From Candidatus Yanofskybacteria bacterium CG10_big_fil_rev_8_21_14_0_10_46_23 (lineage in GTDB: Bacteria > Patescibacteriota > Minisyncoccia > 2-02-FULL-40-12 > IGHO2-12-FULL-4), in NCBI GenBank assembly GCA_002771135.1, contig PCXO01000004.1, forward strand, positions 1-56,410: a DNA stretch of 56,410 bases. Direction: 5' to 3'. Shown here piece after piece: positions 15,687 to 24,457 of the stretch; positions within the stretch are counted from its first letter, which is position 1; every line of letters starts with the position of its first letter. A program made the translations under genes and the position numbers. The notes beneath the pieces were generated by a model that was given only the letters and a program-made list of their open reading frames with translations, was not told the DNA's origin and did not search any database.

Positions 15687-15715
15687 TTGACTCTATTCTA
15701 ATTTTGATGTAATAT
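15687..15715 (+). promoter_or_regulatory. Sigma70-type promoter of the ORF at 15777
   Basis: TTGACT-N17-TAATAT. Confidence 0.65.
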
Positions 15716-15776
15716 CTGAACAGTTCGCGCTCGTTGTTGAGCGCATTCACATGGGAATTTTTTATTAGGAGGAAAC

Positions 15777-16490
15777 GTGATCTCAGAAAAAATCAGCCTG
15801 ACCCACCCCTACGCCTGCGTAGGGGCCACGTCTTTCGGCGGCCGGTGCCGAAAGATGGGGCAAATCGATCTTACCAAACCGGTGGGCTGGGTCTGCCCGG
15901 CTCACATCAATTCGGAAGACGCGCCGGGGCCGCATACCATTTTGATCAAGTTTCGGATTCCCAGAGAATGGGCCCGCGAGTTGGAGATCGCGGGTATTCG
16001 AAACCTTGGGCGACCGGACTTGGCCTCGCAGGAGGCCTATCATAGGGCCGAAGCCGAGAAGTGGGGGCGCAAGGCAGAGGTGGGAGGCGTAGTCGCCTCC
16101 GGAACCCAGGTTTTCGGAGAAGACGGTATCCGGGGCGCTCATTTGAGCACTTTGCCCACCGAACTCTTCAAAGCTGGCCTCCGCCTCTGCCAGCCCGACC
16201 TTGCCAGGGCAACCAAGGGGAAAGGACAGGATCATGTCTTGATTCTGCCTTTCTCCCAAATCGAGAGTGGGGAAGAAGTCTCTAATCTTCCCCCGAAAGT
16301 TGAGCGGGTCATGGAGTCTCTATTCCGGGCGACGTGGCGATGGGGCCACATCTGGGCCAATCCGCCCGAAGAAAAGAAGAGCTGGAGGATCACCCACACC
16401 GTTAACGTGAGCGGTATGGGTGATCGCACTGCCCTTCAAAAGGACCTCCTCTTCGCCAGAGGCCTTTGGAGTCTCCGACTTATCACCTAA
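15777..16490 (+). CDS. Hypothetical protein (237 aa), possible N-terminal Cys3His zinc site
   Basis: GTG start after AGGAGG; C-x9-C-x15-C-x2-H; own promoter and terminator. Confidence 0.75.
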   Translation: MISEKISLTHPYACVGATSFGGRCRKMGQIDLTKPVGWVCPAHINSEDAPGPHTILIKFRIPREWARELEIAGIRNLGRPDLASQEAYHRAEAEKWGRKAEVGGVVASGTQVFGEDGIRGAHLSTLPTELFKAGLRLCQPDLARATKGKGQDHVLILPFSQIESGEEVSNLPPKVERVMESLFRATWRWGHIWANPPEEKKSWRITHTVNVSGMGDRTALQKDLLFARGLWSLRLIT

Positions 16491-16517
16491 CCTAGCCAGT
16501 CCTTTCGCTTCTACCAC

Positions 16518-16558
16518 AACGGCCCCGCCTCTATCCAGAGGCGGGGCCGTTTTATTAT
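16518..16558 (+). terminator. Intrinsic terminator
   Basis: Perfect 15-bp inverted repeat AACGGCCCCGCCTCT-atcc-AGAGGCGGGGCCGTT then T-rich tail. Confidence 0.85.
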
Positions 16559-16581
16559 TACTCACACTTTTTTACCGGTAA

Positions 16582-16604
16582 CAAAAACGAGCCCTTAGGC
16601 TCGT
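16582..16604 (-). terminator. Intrinsic terminator of the NYN gene
   Basis: ACGAGCC-taag-GGCTCGT plus T-run on the minus strand; the stop codon lies in the loop. Confidence 0.7.
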
Positions 16605-17143
16605 GAGAGATTTGCTAGAATCTCATCGATAACTGTTACCTCAATCCAACCCGGATAATCTTGGTAGCGATTGGACAGAGCCTTCTCGAGAGATAAAATC
16701 AACACTTTTTTACCGCGAGACCGAGCCAAGTTGACGGTACTGACATAATCACCGTCGCCACCGACAATGACCAGATCGGTAAAACGAGCCAGTTCAAGCT
16801 GATCTCGCATCATGCTGATCATGACTCGATCGGCCGAGTCCGTGTACTTTAGAGTCTCGCCAAAGTTTGGCGGACACCCCACCACGTAGAACCCGGTATC
16901 AAAGAGGCCCCGGGAAAGCCCGGGGAATAAGTGATTGGGCACAAAAACAAATCCAAGCACAATTTCGGTTTTCGGGCCCAGCTTCTTGAAAAGAAGATCC
17001 TTCAACCAATTTAGACTGGAAAGCGTCCTCCTCGTTTCAAAATTAGGAAGCGAAAACCGGATATTCTCGTAATCAACAAAAACCACAGCAGTCCTCCTGT
17101 CCTTGGGATCAGGAGACTTCCGGTACCTTATTTTTCTCTTCAC
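16595..17143 (-). CDS. NYN domain protein (LabA/DUF88, PIN-like fold)
   Basis: VFVDYENI, DSADRVM, IVGGDGDY acidic motifs, RSRGKKV. Confidence 0.88.
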   Translation of the reverse strand: MKRKIRYRKSPDPKDRRTAVVFVDYENIRFSLPNFETRRTLSSLNWLKDLLFKKLGPKTEIVLGFVFVPNHLFPGLSRGLFDTGFYVVGCPPNFGETLKYTDSADRVMISMMRDQLELARFTDLVIVGGDGDYVSTVNLARSRGKKVLILSLEKALSNRYQDYPGWIEVTVIDEILANLSRA

Positions 17144-17172
17144 CTCTTCCTCTCTTTCTAGGAACTATTTGG

Positions 17173-17216
17173 AATATACCACAGGTATTGACATTGTCAA
17201 CAAAGTTTTATATCAT
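17173..17216. promoter_or_regulatory. Back-to-back sigma70 promoters sharing a palindromic -35 core
   Basis: TTGACA-T-TGTCAA; + strand TTGACA-N17-TATCAT; - strand TTGACA-N16-TATATT with extended TG. Confidence 0.7.
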
Positions 17217-17347
17217 TATTGCCAATACTGAAAGCTCTTTCCCAATTATTGTAACAACCAAAGGAGGTTTTTCACTAAGAGCTTTTGGTCGGCCGTCAGA
17301 TGCTGACGGCCTCTGTACCCTTTTTTCAAGAACAAGAGAGGTAAAAA

Positions 17348-18352
17348 ATGGCAACGATCAAGGAACTTCTGGCCAACGGGGGGCACCGCAAGGGCCCCCG
17401 AAAGAGCAACATCGCGATCGCCGACTTCAAGCCCACCCGGATTCTGCCGAGTGGCGAACCCCCGACCCTGGAAGACCCGCCCGATCTCGCGCGGATCCGG
17501 GCTATTCTGGCCCAGGCCCAAGAGGTCGAACAAAAAATTGAGGGCTACGAAGAAGCTCTCGGGAAGAGGGTCCCCGAGTACCTCTCCATCCGCTGGGAGA
17601 TCCTGGCGGAAATTGGAGAAAAGGGAGGGATGACGAAGGAAGCCCTCCAGCCGGAACTGGAGAAGGTCGAGAGATTGATCGACCGGGTCCTTCAGGCCCC
17701 CGCCCCCTATCGAGTGCCTGGCTGCGTCGCTTTCGCTCTCGCCCTGAGCTCCGCTCAAAGTGAAGAAGAGCTAGGTTGGGGGGTTCGTCGCCTCCAGAAA
17801 GCGGGCTTCTTCTCCGAGGCAACCCGGGGGAACCGCGACGCCTTGCGGGGGGCCAACTTCTCGGTTTTGTTGTCGCTGGAATACAGTGGCAACAAAAAAG
17901 CGGGAAAGGCCCTCAGCCAACTCCGTCGGGTTCAGGGCCTTTTCCTCCAGCAACTGCTCGAGGAAAACGATCAGCGAGCCGCCGAACTGAGAAAGCAGGC
18001 TGGTCCGAATCCGATCGCCGCGGTCAACATCGAGCGGTGGCGGATTAACCCCGGACAGGGCTGGATCGACATCCCCGACCAGCCGGGCAAACGCGGCGGG
18101 CTCATCCTCTTCCATTTGGAGGAGGGCCGGATCCACCCCAAGGGGGTGGCCGGTCGGCATCCCCATTTTGAGGGCCGAGTCCGGCAGATGGTTAACCAGG
18201 GAATTTTTCTGGAGGTCGGGGAGATCCGGGCGGAAAAAATCACCCGCCAGTTCCCAGCCCGGGACCTGTTCTTCCTCGTCCTCGACCTCCAAAAAATGGT
18301 CCGGGCCGGGATTGACCACGCCAAGAAGCTCGAGCTTCGCCGGCGTGGCTAA
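17348..18352 (+). CDS. Hypothetical protein (334 aa)
   Basis: Long ORF, ATG after GAGAGG, visibly GC-richer than core genes, followed by a strong hairpin. Confidence 0.8.
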   Translation: MATIKELLANGGHRKGPRKSNIAIADFKPTRILPSGEPPTLEDPPDLARIRAILAQAQEVEQKIEGYEEALGKRVPEYLSIRWEILAEIGEKGGMTKEALQPELEKVERLIDRVLQAPAPYRVPGCVAFALALSSAQSEEELGWGVRRLQKAGFFSEATRGNRDALRGANFSVLLSLEYSGNKKAGKALSQLRRVQGLFLQQLLEENDQRAAELRKQAGPNPIAAVNIERWRINPGQGWIDIPDQPGKRGGLILFHLEEGRIHPKGVAGRHPHFEGRVRQMVNQGIFLEVGEIRAEKITRQFPARDLFFLVLDLQKMVRAGIDHAKKLELRRRG

Positions 18353-18412
18353 TCCCCACCCCTTCCCTCTCCCATCCCCTCCGACTTAGTTCCTTCCGTT
18401 CTTTCCCACCTC

Positions 18413-18457
18413 AGACCCCTGGGGGTGACACGTCCTGTGTCACCCCCAGGGGTCTTT
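18413..18457 (+). terminator. Long hairpin/terminator
   Basis: Perfect 19-bp stem AGACCCCTGGGGGTGACAC-gtcct-GTGTCACCCCCAGGGGTCT. Confidence 0.75.
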
Positions 18458-18497
18458 CCGTTTGCCCAAATTTCAAGAGAAAGTTAAAATAGAGACC

Positions 18498-19781
18498 ATG
18501 TCGGGACATCGTCAAAACATCAAACGCTCCATTCTCGCCTTAGTCATTATTATCGCCGGCTTGGCCGTGGCCTTTTTATTAACCACCGCCCGCCCCGCCG
18601 CCACAAGTTATAACCAACCCCAAGAGGCTTTTATCGCCGAACTTTACGACTTAATTCAAGAAAAATACTGGGACACCGCCGATGACGCCCGGCTCACCGA
18701 TTTATTCCAACGAGCCCTTGAGAAAACATTTGAGACTCAAATTTCTCTTCAAACTAACGACAAGGCGGGCCTCATTTCTGCCCTGCCTGAAATTCTAGGG
18801 GAAGCCCCCGATGAGGCGACCTTGAAAAAATTGGCTCTGGCCGCCGATATTACTTTGACCAACCTCGAACCCTTTGGCCGAAGTCGCCTTTTCAGTCAAA
18901 AACAGCAACAAGAACTTAGCGACCGCGTCCGCAATGTTGATCCCCAAATCGATCTCTTCTCTGAAATTGGCGTGCCGAAAGAAGCCAGCGAGGAAGAAAT
19001 CGCCACGGCTTATAATCAAAAGATCGCCGAACTGCAAGCTGAACCCGCGACCGAAGCAACCGAACAAAAATTAGCCCTCCTCTCTCGGGCCTTCGAAACT
19101 CTGGGCGACGAAACCAGCCGGAAACAATATACGGAAACCGGAGCCGAAGCCACGGTTGTTGGAAAATATTTAGCCCCGGAAGTTTTTTATTTAAAAATAA
19201 AACAATTTTCGCCCGAAACTTTTAATGAGTTTATCCGCGTGGCTAACGCCAGCGCCGAAGACGGATCAGGAGATGCTATCATTATCGATCTGCGCGGGAA
19301 TATCGGTGGGGCCGTCGATACCTTGCCTTATTTCTTAGGTCCCTTTATCGGCAATAATCAATACGCCTATGATTTTTTCCATCAGGGCGAATACACCCCC
19401 TACAAAACTAAAGTGGGTTGGCTAGAGAGCCTCGTTCCTTTTAAGAAGGTCGCCATTTTGATTGATAGCCAATCTCAATCCTCGGCCGAAATTATGGCCG
19501 CCACTTTGAAAAAATATAATGTTGGCACTTTAATCGGAACCACCACTCGGGGTTGGGGCACGATTGAACAAGTTTTCCCACTGGAACATCAAATCAGCCC
19601 AACCGAAACTTACAGCGCTTTTTTAGTCCACAGCTTGACCCTGCGGAATGACAATCAACCCATTGAGGGTCGCGGAGTGGACCCGACCATTGATATTAAC
19701 AATCCCGCCTGGACCAAAGAATTGGCGGTTTATTTCGGAGAAAGTCCAATCAACCGAGAGATTGAAAAACTTTTAAATTAG
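18498..19781 (+). CDS. S41-family (tail-specific protease-like) membrane-anchored protein with J-domain-like insert
   Basis: N-terminal TM; YLKIKQFS, IIIDLRGNIGG, SQSSAEI, IEGRGVDP S41 motifs; aa stretch DLFSEIGV...RKQY resembles a DnaJ domain. Confidence 0.85.
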   Translation: MSGHRQNIKRSILALVIIIAGLAVAFLLTTARPAATSYNQPQEAFIAELYDLIQEKYWDTADDARLTDLFQRALEKTFETQISLQTNDKAGLISALPEILGEAPDEATLKKLALAADITLTNLEPFGRSRLFSQKQQQELSDRVRNVDPQIDLFSEIGVPKEASEEEIATAYNQKIAELQAEPATEATEQKLALLSRAFETLGDETSRKQYTETGAEATVVGKYLAPEVFYLKIKQFSPETFNEFIRVANASAEDGSGDAIIIDLRGNIGGAVDTLPYFLGPFIGNNQYAYDFFHQGEYTPYKTKVGWLESLVPFKKVAILIDSQSQSSAEIMAATLKKYNVGTLIGTTTRGWGTIEQVFPLEHQISPTETYSAFLVHSLTLRNDNQPIEGRGVDPTIDINNPAWTKELAVYFGESPINREIEKLLN

Positions 19782-20539
19782 TCCACCTGCTCAGCTTTAA
19801 CCGCCAGCCGGTACCGGCAAAAATCACAATCCTTATCGGCGATCGGCACTTCTTCACTAACAAGGCACTGGCGGGCTTGGGTTAGAGCGCTTTCGACCCA
19901 ACCATCATTGCCCTCGTAACCAATCAAGTGAATGTCAAACTCGAGTTTTTGATCGAAAGCATCAACATCCTTTCGGCCGTTACAATAAACAAAATAGCCC
20001 GTATCGGAGACCCGAAAACCATTCCCCCGCAAAAGCCACTGGTAAACTTCCATCTGACGCTTATAGCCGATCTGCCACGGGGCATCGAGATTAATCGCCC
20101 CGTCCTTCGAGGTCGCCTTATAATCAACGACATAAAGCTCCCCTTCGGGATTAATCCAAATATCATCAACGGCGCCATTAACCTCAAAATTGGTCGGCTC
20201 ATGCAGAAAACGAACTCCCCCGCGACCAAAGTCGGTTTCGCGCCAAGTATTCATTTTTTCGTGGGCGAAAGGCACCGCTTCAAGATTGTTGGAAACCATG
20301 ATCGGGTGTTTCGTTCCCGCCCCCCGGTGAATATCAAATTCTTTTTTCAAAAGATGGTCCACGGCTGAGTTCAAATTAAAGGGAAAGCCCGGCGGCCGCC
20401 CCACCCCGCGACGCCGATCGAGATAAAAACAGCGCGGGCATTCCATAAACAAATCTATTTTCGATCGACTTAGGCTAAAGGGGGTTGTTTGATTGGGATC
20501 AAAGGTTTTGGAACTTTTTGGCTTGTAGTACTGCGACAT
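19778..20539 (-). CDS. PD-(D/E)XK nuclease family protein (RecB/Cas4-like, Cys-bracketed)
   Basis: LSRSKIDLFMECPRC, GAVDD, VVDYKAT, QMEVY, CDFC. Confidence 0.88.
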   Translation of the reverse strand: MSQYYKPKSSKTFDPNQTTPFSLSRSKIDLFMECPRCFYLDRRRGVGRPPGFPFNLNSAVDHLLKKEFDIHRGAGTKHPIMVSNNLEAVPFAHEKMNTWRETDFGRGGVRFLHEPTNFEVNGAVDDIWINPEGELYVVDYKATSKDGAINLDAPWQIGYKRQMEVYQWLLRGNGFRVSDTGYFVYCNGRKDVDAFDQKLEFDIHLIGYEGNDGWVESALTQARQCLVSEEVPIADKDCDFCRYRLAVKAEQVD

Positions 20540-20613
20540 TTGGTTATCATCGCACAGCCAAAGACTCGGGTCAAACCGCTCCGAAAAATTGGCCCTAGAT
20601 ATCAACAGCCCGG

Positions 20614-20731: not shown

Positions 20732-23641
20732 TTATAGATTCTGCCAGCGACAGAATTGACAGGCTTTATCCTCGCACCGCCCCTCCCAGAAAGAGAGGTT
20801 TTTTATTTCTTGAACGGCTTTTAAAATTACCCCTTTCAGCTCCGCAACTTCGGATTTTTCGATAAAAAATTCCTCCTTTTTGTAGTTACCCGAGCTGTTC
20901 GGCTCAACAAAATCAATGGTCGCGGAGTTAAAAAGATACTGACCGCCCCGGTGGTGATCGAGCAAAAGTTTATAAAAAACCAGCTGGCGCCTTAAAGAGC
21001 CGTCGGAGGCTTTGGTTTTGCCCATAATGTCATTGCGACTCTTGGGATTACCTGTCTTATAATCAATTACCTTGACTTCATTTTTGGGTAAAAGCTCCAA
21101 GCGATCCAAAACACCGACTAACCGAATCTCTTTCCCAAGTAAAACATCATCAATTCGATACTCCGTTTTTACGGCTTTTGGCCACTGGTCAACCCGGTCA
21201 AACCAACCCCCAAGCGCCCGCTCGCCTCGAGCTTGAAGTTCCCGAAGTTCAATCTCGGTTAGGGGGAGCCCGGCCAGTTCTTTCTTAAATTTAGTTAAAA
21301 GTCTTTTCCGATTTGGCTTCCCTTTAAATATCTCCCCCAGAGCAGTGTGAACGGCGATGCCAAAATACTGGTGGACGGCTGGCGCCTGCGGAACGCGCAG
21401 AAGATTAACATAAAAATATTGCCAGGGACATTTTAAATAGTTATTGAGAGCCGTTACGGATAGCCCCTGTTTTTCCAAAAGACCGCGGACCAGACCCCCC
21501 AAAGATTTTTTGACTGTTTTCTCGGACTTACCCCCCAAAGATGGGCCGAGCGGTTTTTCAAATTTTGACCCATCACCCACCTTAATCATCCGCGGATCTA
21601 GTTCCGAAATAAACTGAGACGGCAATTGCTCCTGGCCATCAATCCCCACTCGACTATAGGAGATTATCACCGCTTTTCGGGCCCGGGTCAGGGCGACATA
21701 AAATAAGCGTCGATCATCACCATTTTCATCGCCGAGATCCTTCGCTCGAAGCGAAAAGACACCGGGGAGAATCGGGAGATTTTCCGCCCGGCGTCGATTC
21801 CCCCAATGGCCGTCCGTGGCGCCGATAATAAAGACCGACTCGAATTCCAGACCTTTGGCTCGATGGGCCGTCATCAATCGGACCGCCCCACCCGAGTTTA
21901 ACTGGGTTTTATTGATAGCGACTTGGTGCGTTTGAATTATCCGAAGGTGTTCTAAGAAATCGGCTAACTGGGCTTTAGGATTGAGGCCATTTAACTTCCG
22001 GACCTCATCAAACAGTTTCTCGGCCTTACTGATTTTTCCAGCCATCTGCCGGTGGTGGTAAAGATGCCGGTTAAAATTCGACTCTTCAAAAATATCCCCT
22101 AAAACTCGGACCGCCGGCTCATTTTTAGCTCGGACCGCCCAGCTAATCATTTTTTTATAAAACTCAGAGAATGACTCCTCCTTTTTAAGCAATTGCCAAA
22201 GGCTCTTTCTGCTTTCGCGGGCGATCCGAACCAGATTAAAAACTTCCTCCGGCTTGAATTTCAGAAAGTCGATGTGCAAGACCGGGATTAATTTCTGATC
22301 GTTTCCAAAATCGTTAATCGCTTCCAAAATCAAAACGATTTTAGAAATATCAATGTCGGCCAGAACATCCTGGCTGGACTCAATCACAAAAGGAATCTCC
22401 TGGCGTTCAAGGGTTTGAGCAATCTCCGCGCTATCACTATTGTCTCGATATAGAATGGCGATTTCTTCCGGCTTCCGACCTGATTTTATCTGGGCTTTAA
22501 TTTGATCGACCAAAAAGTTATTCTCGGCTTGAATCGAAGGAAAGGAGAAAATTGTCGCCGGTGGACCCGAATGCGCAAAAGCGCTTTTTAAATTATGCTC
22601 CTGAGACAAGAGACTTTGGGCGACATTTAAAATTTCTTGAGTTGAGCGATAATTTTGATGAAGTGAAATTGTTTCTACGGTCGGGTAGCGACTTTTAAAA
22701 TCCCGAAAGTTTTTTAAAGAGGCCCCTTGAAATCGATAGATCGACTGTTTCTCGTCGCCGACCACAAAGAGATTGGGATTCTCGTGAAAATCCATCAAAA
22801 GATGGACCAGATTACTTTGGGATTGGTTTGAGTCTTGATATTCATCGACCAGAACATATTGGTAACGTTCCTGAAGTTCGAGTTTTAAATTTGGATTTTG
22901 CTCTAAGGCCCGAACGACTTCAATAATCATATCGCCAAAGTCATACTGATTATTGGCTCGAAGTTCCTGCTGATATTTTCTATAGATTCTCAAAAGTTCG
23001 GCATTCTTGTTTATTTGACGCTCTAATTGAAGGTATTTCCCCTTTATTTTCCCCCTATACGGTCCGAACTCATGGGTTAGGTCATCAATATTTTTAAAAT
23101 CAATTTTTTCCTTATCGACAATTTTCTCAAATTTTTCAGGGGTGACGTCTTCTCGTTTTAATTGATCAATGGCATGACGAATTGATCCAATATAAAAATC
23201 GGGCCGGCCGATCGGCCGAAGAATCTCTAAATCTAAACCTTTGATAATCGCCTCAAAATAGCCAAACTGCTGAGTTTCCGTGATTGGCTCGGCCCCGATA
23301 ATCTCCGGAAAATAATCAGGGTAATTTTGGATAACCCCGCTGGCAAAGCCGTGGAACGTGGCGATCGTTGGTCGGTAGGCGCTCTGACCAATAATGGTTA
23401 AGAGGCGACGACGCATATTAGTCGCCGCCGCCTCGGTGAAGGTTAGGGCTAAAATATTCTCGGGGTTAATCTGGGTCTTATTTAAAATTTGAGCGATCCG
23501 CAGAGTTAAAACTTGAGTCTTGCCTGTCCCCGGGCCGGCGGTAACCAAGGTCGGACCTTCGATCAAATCAACGGCTCTTTTTTGCTGGGAGTTTAAGCGT
23601 TTGTATTCTTTTTGGAATAACCCTTTATTCATAATTGCCAA
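20732..23641 (-). CDS. UvrD/PcrA-like SF1A helicase fused to C-terminal PD-(D/E)XK nuclease
   Basis: AGPGTGKT, VDEYQD, GDEKQSIYRFQGA, MTAHRAKGLEF, YVALTRA; C-terminal LKCP...GVLDR...IDYKTG...C-x4-C-x2-C. Confidence 0.93.
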   Translation of the reverse strand: MAIMNKGLFQKEYKRLNSQQKRAVDLIEGPTLVTAGPGTGKTQVLTLRIAQILNKTQINPENILALTFTEAAATNMRRRLLTIIGQSAYRPTIATFHGFASGVIQNYPDYFPEIIGAEPITETQQFGYFEAIIKGLDLEILRPIGRPDFYIGSIRHAIDQLKREDVTPEKFEKIVDKEKIDFKNIDDLTHEFGPYRGKIKGKYLQLERQINKNAELLRIYRKYQQELRANNQYDFGDMIIEVVRALEQNPNLKLELQERYQYVLVDEYQDSNQSQSNLVHLLMDFHENPNLFVVGDEKQSIYRFQGASLKNFRDFKSRYPTVETISLHQNYRSTQEILNVAQSLLSQEHNLKSAFAHSGPPATIFSFPSIQAENNFLVDQIKAQIKSGRKPEEIAILYRDNSDSAEIAQTLERQEIPFVIESSQDVLADIDISKIVLILEAINDFGNDQKLIPVLHIDFLKFKPEEVFNLVRIARESRKSLWQLLKKEESFSEFYKKMISWAVRAKNEPAVRVLGDIFEESNFNRHLYHHRQMAGKISKAEKLFDEVRKLNGLNPKAQLADFLEHLRIIQTHQVAINKTQLNSGGAVRLMTAHRAKGLEFESVFIIGATDGHWGNRRRAENLPILPGVFSLRAKDLGDENGDDRRLFYVALTRARKAVIISYSRVGIDGQEQLPSQFISELDPRMIKVGDGSKFEKPLGPSLGGKSEKTVKKSLGGLVRGLLEKQGLSVTALNNYLKCPWQYFYVNLLRVPQAPAVHQYFGIAVHTALGEIFKGKPNRKRLLTKFKKELAGLPLTEIELRELQARGERALGGWFDRVDQWPKAVKTEYRIDDVLLGKEIRLVGVLDRLELLPKNEVKVIDYKTGNPKSRNDIMGKTKASDGSLRRQLVFYKLLLDHHRGGQYLFNSATIDFVEPNSSGNYKKEEFFIEKSEVAELKGVILKAVQEIKNLSFWEGRCEDKACQFCRWQNL

Positions 23642-23716: not shown

Positions 23717-24457
23717 TTATTCAATCCCGTATCGAACCGTCACGACAATATTTATTTCTTGAGAACCACCCTCAACTCCCGGGCCTCCGCCCCCAATTCC
23801 GCCGGCGAAACTATCCGCGACCCGGAAGATCGGCTCCGGGGCAAAACTTTCTTCAATAGAGAGGAGCTGACCAAGTCGAAAATCCCCGGCTCCGGCAATA
23901 TCTTTAGCTTTTTCTTTAGCGTTTTCAATCGCCTTTTTTCGCGCTTTTTGCTCCAACTTAGTTCGATCTTCAATGTCGAAAGACAGCTGGGAAACGTTGT
24001 TAGCGCCACGCTCAACCACCCCTGCCAAAATATCACTGGCTTTGGCAAAGTCTTTGACCTTAACTCGAAAACTTTGATTGACCGTAAAACCAACAATTCT
24101 GGATGGACCCGCATTACTAAAAACATAACGGGGGTCAATCGAGTAGTTGGAAGTCTTGATATCCTCCTTTCCCACGCCTTGATCGTTGAGGTATTTTAAA
24201 ATTTTATCGGAAGCCTCGGAATTATTCTTCTGCAAATTAGCAACATCTAGTCCGCCCTCGGTGATTATCCCGAAGGTAAAGGTCGCCGTATCCGGAACCG
24301 CAATCGTAGAACCCTCCGCCGTTACCGTAAAACTTCGAACATTATTTGGGTCAAGCGATCTCGAAAAAGATCGGACATAACTTGCCGTTGAAAACCCCGC
24401 CACTAGCAGGGCGAAGATCGCCGCCAAACCTAAATAGTTCCTTATTTTTATATCCAT
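23717..24457 (-). CDS. SIMPL domain protein (DUF541)
   Basis: N-terminal TM, FTVTAEG...AVPDTA, GANNVSQLSF, AIENAKEKA. Confidence 0.88.
   Translation of the reverse strand: MDIKIRNYLGLAAIFALLVAGFSTASYVRSFSRSLDPNNVRSFTVTAEGSTIAVPDTATFTFGIITEGGLDVANLQKNNSEASDKILKYLNDQGVGKEDIKTSNYSIDPRYVFSNAGPSRIVGFTVNQSFRVKVKDFAKASDILAGVVERGANNVSQLSFDIEDRTKLEQKARKKAIENAKEKAKDIAGAGDFRLGQLLSIEESFAPEPIFRVADSFAGGIGGGGPGVEGGSQEINIVVTVRYGIE

Follow-up and report, generated by a model that had tools for sequence, protein, structure and literature searches.

The 427-amino-acid (aa) protein P0001 (encoded at positions 18498..19781, forward strand, with ATG at 18498 and TAG at 19779-19781) in a 56,410-nucleotide (nt) stretch of Candidatus Yanofskybacteria DNA, the whole of which is called the window below, belongs to a clade of S41-fold proteins that keeps the nucleophile absolutely while the general base and the substrate gate are both replaced. 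In textbooks, S41 proteases appear as Ser-Lys(-Gln) enzymes whose gate is a PDZ domain. In the window protein, the catalytic positions read Ser328-Trp353-Glu357 and a J-like four-helix domain without the His-Pro-Asp (HPD) tripeptide occupies the PDZ slot. We estimate at about 50% the probability that this protein is a signal-anchored, outward-facing S41-fold serine hydrolase with a base other than Lys, forming a second paralogue beside a canonical PDZ-containing CtpA. An earlier note made from the letters of the DNA had proposed an S41 protease with a J-domain-like insert in the PDZ position, no HPD, an intact nucleophile motif and a Trp in place of the catalytic Lys, and the alignments and models presented here bear out each of these proposals.

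Catalytic positions of the S41 core and their natural variants

The Peptidase_S41 family (PF03572) was matched by Pfam on aa 230-399 (nt 19185-19694; E=1.6e-23, 83.5 bits for a cut-off of 24), and a profile-profile alignment with hhalign extended the likeness to S41 over aa 218-405 with a probability of 99.9%, delimiting a ClpP/crotonase-like core at 19149..19712. When solved structures were searched with phmmer, this core was aligned to P. aeruginosa CtpA and B. subtilis CtpB, the query segment GTTTRGWGTIEQ falling on GDTSFGKGTVQQ. In this register, Trp353 (TGG, 19554-19556) stands in the column of the catalytic Lys, i.e. the general base of the FGKG motif, and Glu357 in the column of the triad Gln; the same register was obtained by BLASTP against the canonical CtpA of the same genome and by profile-profile alignment. 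Ser328 (TCC, 19479-19481), in the motif SQSQ-S328-SAE (19467..19490), opens the S-x-x-E helix and was aligned to the nucleophile of CtpB, of CtpA and of the paralogue from the same genome. The Ser-Lys-Gln triad of CtpB-type enzymes is in this way read as Ser328-Trp353-Glu357. The DLRGNIGG motif (aa 264-271, 19287..19310) shares with canonical S41 proteins the invariant residues D264, N268, G270 and G271 and corresponds to DxRxNxGG, which we take to be the canonical oxyanion-hole motif. The full-length AlphaFold2 (AF2) model (predicted local distance difference test (pLDDT) score 94.5, predicted template modelling (pTM) score 0.86) retrieved Prc, CtpA, CtpB and D1P with Foldseek at E values from 1e-13 to 1e-16. 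Further matches were the PDZ-less modules of the interphotoreceptor retinoid-binding protein (IRBP) and a PDZ-less streptococcal lipoprotein (4y68). The H. pylori CtpA structure among these matches was deposited as the S300A/K325A/Q329A triad mutant.

The CtpB triad consists of Ser309, Lys334 and Gln338, where Gln338 contacts and orients the Lys, and the Q338E substitution abolishes activity although the Lys was still present in that test (PMC3808539). Given this role of Gln338 and the effect of its replacement, position 357 is considered to be part of the catalytic apparatus. By analogy with CtpB, residues 353 and 357 would act jointly beside Ser328, as Lys334 and Gln338 do, and the Q338E result would show that a Glu at 357 is compatible only after the Lys is gone. 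The curated models for C-terminal processing (Ctp) proteases did not recognize the protein: TIGR00225 (prc) gave 70.1 bits for a cut-off of 218.6, and the NCBIfam models specific for CtpA, CtpB, CtpC and CtpZ remained far below their cut-offs. As only sub-threshold matches to Ctp and DnaJ models were found, the family has no curated NCBIfam model. Because the Lys, the Gln, the PDZ domain and the curated score cut-offs all failed, the protein is filed as a member of the S41 fold and not as a C-terminal processing protease.

No part of the protein is better conserved than the former active site. Down to 28% identity, residues P125, R128, D264, R266, N268, G270, G271, T304, S328, E331, G352, W353, G354, T355, E357 and G393 are invariant or nearly so, and conservation within the family peaks in the segment T-R-G-W353-G-T-I-E357 (19545..19568). 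Of RGWG, whose conservation among homologues from the Candidate Phyla Radiation (CPR) the earlier note had suggested checking, GWG is nearly invariant and the Arg is not, position 351 being variable. Variants were counted over 378 family members: Ser328 is present in 378 of them and Glu331 is invariant too. Residues 128, 353 and 357 read Arg/Trp/Glu in 353 sequences, His or Lys/Trp/Glu in 6, Val/Trp/Glu in 1, Arg/His/Glu (motif RGHGTIE) in 13, and Leu, Ile or Val followed by Trp or Val and by Lys in 4. In P0208 (Arg128/Trp353), the alignment scored a Gly at 357, yet its motif GWGTIENG indicates that it carries the Glu. Arg128 (CGA, 18879-18881) is part of a family motif P-x-G-R-S (aa 125-129, 18870..18884).

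Maximum-likelihood trees were rooted on canonical S41 proteins, and a second tree was calculated with columns 128, 353 and 357 masked. All basal branches are in the Trp/Glu state; Trp353 is ancestral but not invariant. A His at 353 with Glu357 kept, giving a Ser-His-Glu constellation, appeared on at least three occasions (in a clade of 9-10 sequences, in the pair P0308/P0338, and in P0451); P0278 is among the members with His353. Since all three bases of TGG must be substituted to reach a His codon, the repeated change from Trp to His is hard to attribute to drift. Lys357 has three origins (P0141, P0177 and the pair P0293/P0367), and Trp353 was also changed to Val in two of these three lineages (P0141 and P0177). 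Residue 128 is basic in 372 of the 373 sequences with Glu357; in the four with Lys357, from three independent lineages, it is L, I, I and V. That the Lys357 lineages all replaced Arg128 by Leu, Ile or Val implies that Arg128 contacts Glu357, a pairing deduced from covariation. Departures from the Trp/Glu state are rare, recurrent and chemically meaningful. Combined, the variants suggest that Glu357, which covaries with 353 and 128, behaves like a catalytic partner, and we infer that selection retains a proton-handling group in the 353/357 pocket.

An attempt was made to map Arg128 onto canonical Ctp proteases. The hhalign alignment covered the core only, and MAFFT placed P-x-G-R-S on the GxG loop of the PDZ domain, which was judged spurious.

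The J-like insert, its predicted location and a transporter fusion

The domain inserted at 18939..19142 (aa 148-215) is neither a PDZ domain nor an unrelated fold. No PDZ family was found in the protein by a Pfam scan, even at E<=10, whereas DnaJ (PF00226) was matched on aa 153-211 (nt 18954-19130; E=3.3e-6) with 27.5 bits, just under the cut-off of 27.8; the same insert scored 31.5 bits in a six-frame search of the genome. A profile built from the inserts of 34 family members matched solved J domains at E=2e-17. The AF2 model of the isolated insert (pLDDT 90) has four helices with the lengths of those of J domains, and all 50 of the 50 Foldseek matches listed for it were J domains, with query-normalised TM-scores of 0.62-0.79. 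The HPD tripeptide is absent from the loop between helices II and III, appearing as a deletion in the profile alignment; the loop reads QAEPATEA in the window protein and K-[DE]-x-[ST]-P-E-A in the family. P0221, also retrieved in the searches, is an unrelated protein with six true HPD-containing J domains; it adds nothing beyond a confirmation of the J homology.

The position of the insert was assessed with the canonical S41 paralogue of the same genome (L001:826-2070), which carries a CtpB_N-like domain (aa 59-111), a PDZ domain (aa 124-203) and Peptidase_S41 (aa 226-388) with the motifs GSASASE...TFGKGSVQ. The core of the window protein starts at aa 218, which hhalign aligned with aa 213 of the paralogue. 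Ahead of the insert, the AF2 secondary structure shows a helical N-domain of four helices (aa 41-121, 18618..18860), to which the Foldseek alignments with Prc and D1P extend and whose position is equivalent to that of the N-terminal cap domain of Ctp proteases. As the J-like domain sits between this helical N-domain and the first core strand, with the core beginning where that of the paralogue does, it occupies the PDZ slot.

The genome that contains the window (571 kb in 13 contigs, 95% complete; G000) holds no other PF00226 match than the insert. Neither GrpE nor a canonical DnaJ was found in it, and DnaK was not found either: the HSP70 model gave only matches of 39-51 bits, in frames of 339 and 368 aa that are MreB/FtsA-like in length and score. 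DnaK is also missing from two further gene-holding genomes of this taxonomic family (G302, G303), whereas it is present in genomes of the same order, and eight more distant gene-holding genomes have a DnaK scoring more than 800 bits. This suggests that the whole Hsp70 system was lost in a lineage-specific manner. Since the genome lacks DnaK, DnaJ and GrpE, the J fold is independent of Hsp70 there, and the absence of an Hsp70 system, the missing HPD and the predicted outside location exclude a co-chaperone role in this organism.

The protein begins with MSGHRQNIKRS followed by a hydrophobic helix of 19-21 residues. The hydropathy scan delimits a signal anchor or signal peptide at aa 10-30 (18525..18587), and the basic residues ahead of it point to an N-in/C-out orientation. 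An N-terminal transmembrane (TM) anchor was detected by the same type of scan in 116 of 120 homologues. The protein is accordingly predicted to face outward, either anchored in the membrane or exported by a signal peptide, in agreement with the extracytoplasmic location that had been supposed for it. The topology of a natural fusion points the same way. In P0181 (760 aa), the J-like and S41 parts are fused to an amino-acid transporter domain of the Aa_trans family (PF01490; 36 bits for a cut-off of 25.6). The identical open reading frame (ORF) is present in an NCBI metagenome-assembled genome, on a contig of 190 kb, and in an independent Logan assembly (L012:5001-7283 and L013:5001-7283). Its hydropathy and positive-inside pattern fits 11 TM segments, one of them sub-threshold and inferred, the last being the family's own anchor, and this topology places the J-like/S41 part outside the membrane. 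The fusion hints that the products enter the cell as amino acids or peptides.

Family distribution and genetic context

At least about 380 homologues in the collected set share the architecture, forming about 90 clusters at 50% identity. All are from Patescibacteria, as expected for what had been taken to be a CPR protein. The recurrence of the same features in so many homologues indicates that the architecture is not due to chance. A word-indexed search scored more than 1000 homologues at E<=1e-3; among the 119 matches listed, identity to the query was 44-52%, nearly all carried both PF00226 and PF03572, and those with source names belonged to Patescibacteria lineages. Their source annotations were limited to 'S41 family peptidase' or 'DnaJ domain-containing protein'. 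When 1.84 billion cluster representatives were searched with HMMER, 94 clusters were retrieved at E<=1e-30, followed by a sharp gap down to canonical S41 proteins at about 1e-15, which marks the clade as discrete. Full-text literature searches retrieved no description of a DnaJ/S41 architecture or of an S41 protein with Trp for Lys, and this S41 variant is apparently unstudied.

The distribution of the family is patchy. Among 301 genomes sampled evenly across the phylum, a full-length member was found in 4, the remainder having canonical CtpA only; a canonical S41 protein was also present in all 4 holders. Among 31 close relatives, 8 have a member, including 3 of the 9 from the same taxonomic family, with about 46-51% identity. 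A recent horizontal acquisition or a genomic island was considered and rejected: the GC content of the gene (47.8%) is close to that of the window (46.2%), and a GC-rich block lying upstream stops at about 18.46 kb, before the gene. Orthologues with about 50% identity in the same taxonomic family also oppose a recent acquisition, despite the patchiness.

The gene looks monocistronic, with a strong terminator on its upstream side and a nuclease gene converging on it from downstream. The terminator-like hairpin (18413..18455, forward strand) consists of a 20-bp stem followed by a T-rich tail; it closes the preceding orphan gene, from which it insulates the S41 gene. An alternative in-frame TTG at 18462 lies inside this T-rich tail. 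A promoter-like site, TTGCCC-17-TAAAAT (18462..18490, forward strand), was recognized by its match to the consensus only, and no clear Shine-Dalgarno sequence was seen ahead of the ATG at 18498 (18462-18500). As the -10-like hexamer ends 7 nt before this ATG, the mRNA may have no leader or almost none.

Several features of the surrounding DNA were recorded. At the stop codons, the S41 gene shares 4 nt (19778-19781) with the PD-(D/E)XK nuclease gene that converges on it (19778-20605, reverse strand). The nuclease gene is followed by a gene encoding a 969-aa UvrD-helicase/PD-(D/E)XK fusion (20732-23641, reverse strand), the two forming an AddAB-like pair. A SIMPL/DUF541 gene is found 2-4 kb from the J-like/S41 gene in the window (23717-24457) and at one distant locus (L004:9220-10023); the other loci examined lack it, and this proximity is probably a coincidence. 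On the upstream side, the GC-rich block extends from 15700 to 18460, between dsbA and the S41 gene, with a GC content of up to 60% against about 46%. It contains a gene for an NYN-domain protein (16595-17143, reverse strand) and many overlapping spurious ORFs. On either side of the NYN gene lies an orphan gene without any Pfam match (15777-16490 and 17348-18352, both on the forward strand). The block ends, at about 18.46 kb, with the hairpin at 18413-18455, whose 20-bp stem is unusually long.

Proposed catalytic rewiring, alternative readings and relation to known systems

In the reading that we favour, the protein would be an ecto-hydrolase with a rewired centre. Ser328 would be the attacking nucleophile, and proton abstraction would have moved from position 353 to the carboxylate of Glu357, acting directly or via a water molecule. 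Arg128 would hold Glu357 in place and the indole of Trp353 would cap it. The J fold would form a rigid lid or a docking module replacing the PDZ domain, and free C-termini would no longer be read. The substrates would be envelope or environmental peptides and, in at least one lineage, the enzyme would be physically coupled to amino-acid uptake. The invariance of Ser328, when compared with the loss of the catalytic Ser in the non-catalytic IRBP (PMC10120077), argues for an active site that is still functional. Several points weigh against this reading. Trp cannot accept a proton, a Glu engaged in a salt bridge with Arg is a poor base, and the Q338E change inactivates CtpB, although with the Lys present (PMC3808539). 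The variants with His or Lys may come from a generally inactive scaffold that regained activity, in which case they would not prove activity of the Trp/Glu state. For proteolysis, a canonical PDZ-containing CtpA is already encoded in the genome, the transporter fusion is known from a single lineage, and no conserved gene neighbourhood was seen, the window, three distant loci and the fusion locus having no shared neighbours. On balance, the evidence, which comes from sequence comparison, leans towards a catalytic role rather than that of a binder or receptor.

The main rival reading is a pseudo-protease, a serious if less likely candidate. The protein would then be a membrane-tethered, non-catalytic binding module or receptor for a peptide or an envelope ligand, in which Ser328, Trp353, Glu357 and Arg128 would line a binding pocket and the J fold would offer a surface for protein-protein contacts. 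This would account for the replacement of the general-base Lys by a residue unable to act as a base and for the coexistence of a canonical CtpA in every genome checked; Q338E alone is sufficient to inactivate CtpB (PMC3808539), and IRBP provides the precedent for a non-catalytic S41 protein (PMC10120077), its modules being found with 4y68 among the Foldseek matches. A pocket retained for binding only does not readily explain why Ser328 is invariant in 378 sequences when IRBP lost its Ser, nor why the changes tolerated at 353 and 357 are to the classical bases His and Lys, repeatedly and in coordination with 128. The fusion to an amino-acid transporter also fits an enzyme releasing products better than a receptor.

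Two further readings keep a catalytic Ser and change either the substrate or the base. It appears improbable that the substrate class has shifted to lipid or lipopeptide esters, with an Arg-assisted Ser-carboxylate dyad acting as hydrolase or acyl-transferase. The Ser-Asp(+Arg) centres of patatin and cPLA2 offer the analogy, and the window protein would have an equivalent set in Ser328, Glu357, Arg128 and an aromatic cap. The ClpP/crotonase scaffold hosts varied chemistry around one oxyanion hole (CtpB has been compared with ClpP; PMC3808539) and IRBP relatives are reported to bind lipophilic ligands (PMC7710524). Lipid-related genes are nevertheless lacking around the gene in the window and at three distant loci, the sole fusion partner found is an amino-acid transporter, and the variants drift towards classical protease triads. 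Still harder to sustain is a replacement of the catalytic Lys by another fixed base, Arg351 or else Lys338, His378 or His295. The Arg 23 residues after the nucleophile, i.e. Arg351, had been put forward in the earlier note; this position is indeed Lys or Arg in about 93% of the members in the Trp/Glu state, but A, G, S, M, H, N, L, F or Q in the rest, deep branches included, and the suggestion was abandoned. His378 is found in about 81% of members and is mostly missing from the His353 lineages, a hint of partial interchangeability, and this residue may matter locally. However, His378 and His295 (about 73%) are both missing in about a dozen members, and Lys338 is located 10 residues beyond Ser328 along the helix, at a position that is K, R or Q in canonical enzymes too. 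As universal bases, these three residues fail on conservation and helix position, leaving no other Lys or His conserved family-wide in the role of the base.

If the Trp/Glu state is active, it would represent a new way to activate a serine on the ClpP/crotonase scaffold and the family would offer, ready-made in nature, a series of catalytic centres that convert into one another. The decisive mutations have in effect already been made by evolution, with Trp353 changed to His at least three times and Glu357 to Lys three times, each of the latter with a hydrophobic residue 128. If it is inactive, the family is a well-defined bacterial pseudo-protease, unusual in retaining its nucleophile. The predicted use of a J fold outside the cell, by some hosts devoid of any Hsp70, bears on how this fold is reused. 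For the biology of Patescibacteria, the protein would be a surface enzyme that may serve the acquisition of peptides or amino acids. The covariation of 353, 357 and 128, the non-invariance of the Trp, the absence of Hsp70 in the lineage and the transporter fusion are new observations. Taken to its full extent, the proposal would define a new mechanistic subclass of S41 and of the ClpP/crotonase fold. In it, a Trp-capped, Arg-held Glu would activate the Ser without Lys or His and would interconvert with Ser-His-Glu and with a Ser-Lys centre shifted by four residues; an Hsp70-independent extracytoplasmic J lid would stand for the PDZ domain, and the enzyme would feed amino-acid or peptide uptake in auxotrophic ultrasmall bacteria. 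We put this complete version forward as tentative, and it may well fail in one or other of its parts.

With J-domain proteins of the DnaJ/Hsp40 type, the insert shares the four-helix fold and the core residues Y..LG, A..EI..AY, AY..L and R..YD. In contrast to these proteins, its J fold has no HPD, is predicted to lie outside the membrane, occurs in a genome without Hsp70 and is embedded inside a protease instead of standing at the N-terminus of a co-chaperone. The J fold is present, yet both functional features of J-domain co-chaperones that were tested, the HPD and an Hsp70 partner, are lacking. J-like proteins without HPD are otherwise represented by Pam16/Tim16. Among S41 members, the tricorn core protease and the chlamydial CPAF have a Ser-His(-Glu) centre whose His is contributed by the N-terminal portion of the fold, not by the canonical Lys position. 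They have no Ser-Lys dyad either, and the sublineages with His353 and Glu357 would give a comparable Ser-His-Glu centre; the window protein differs from them in having Trp, not His, at 353. A catalytic His is not conserved family-wide, His353 being found in only about 13 of 378 members, the window protein not included, and an equivalence of Arg128 with the His of tricorn and CPAF is only a lead. The IRBP/RBP3 modules have a likewise PDZ-less S41 body and are a precedent for neofunctionalisation of this fold; unlike IRBP, which lost the catalytic Ser (PMC10120077), the window family keeps it without exception. The Ctp proteases of MEROPS S41A (B. subtilis CtpB, P. aeruginosa and H. pylori CtpA, E. 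coli Prc/Tsp and D1P) have the same core fold, the Ser of the S-x-x-E helix and DxRxNxGG, and the same order of helical N-domain, inserted domain and core; they are extracytoplasmic, as is predicted here. The window family departs from them by an HPD-less J fold for the PDZ domain, by Ser-Trp-Glu for Ser-Lys-Gln and by its family-specific Arg128 partner, and it forms a separate clade. In conclusion, it is from the S41A Ctp proteases that the window protein descends, and it is like them that it works most.

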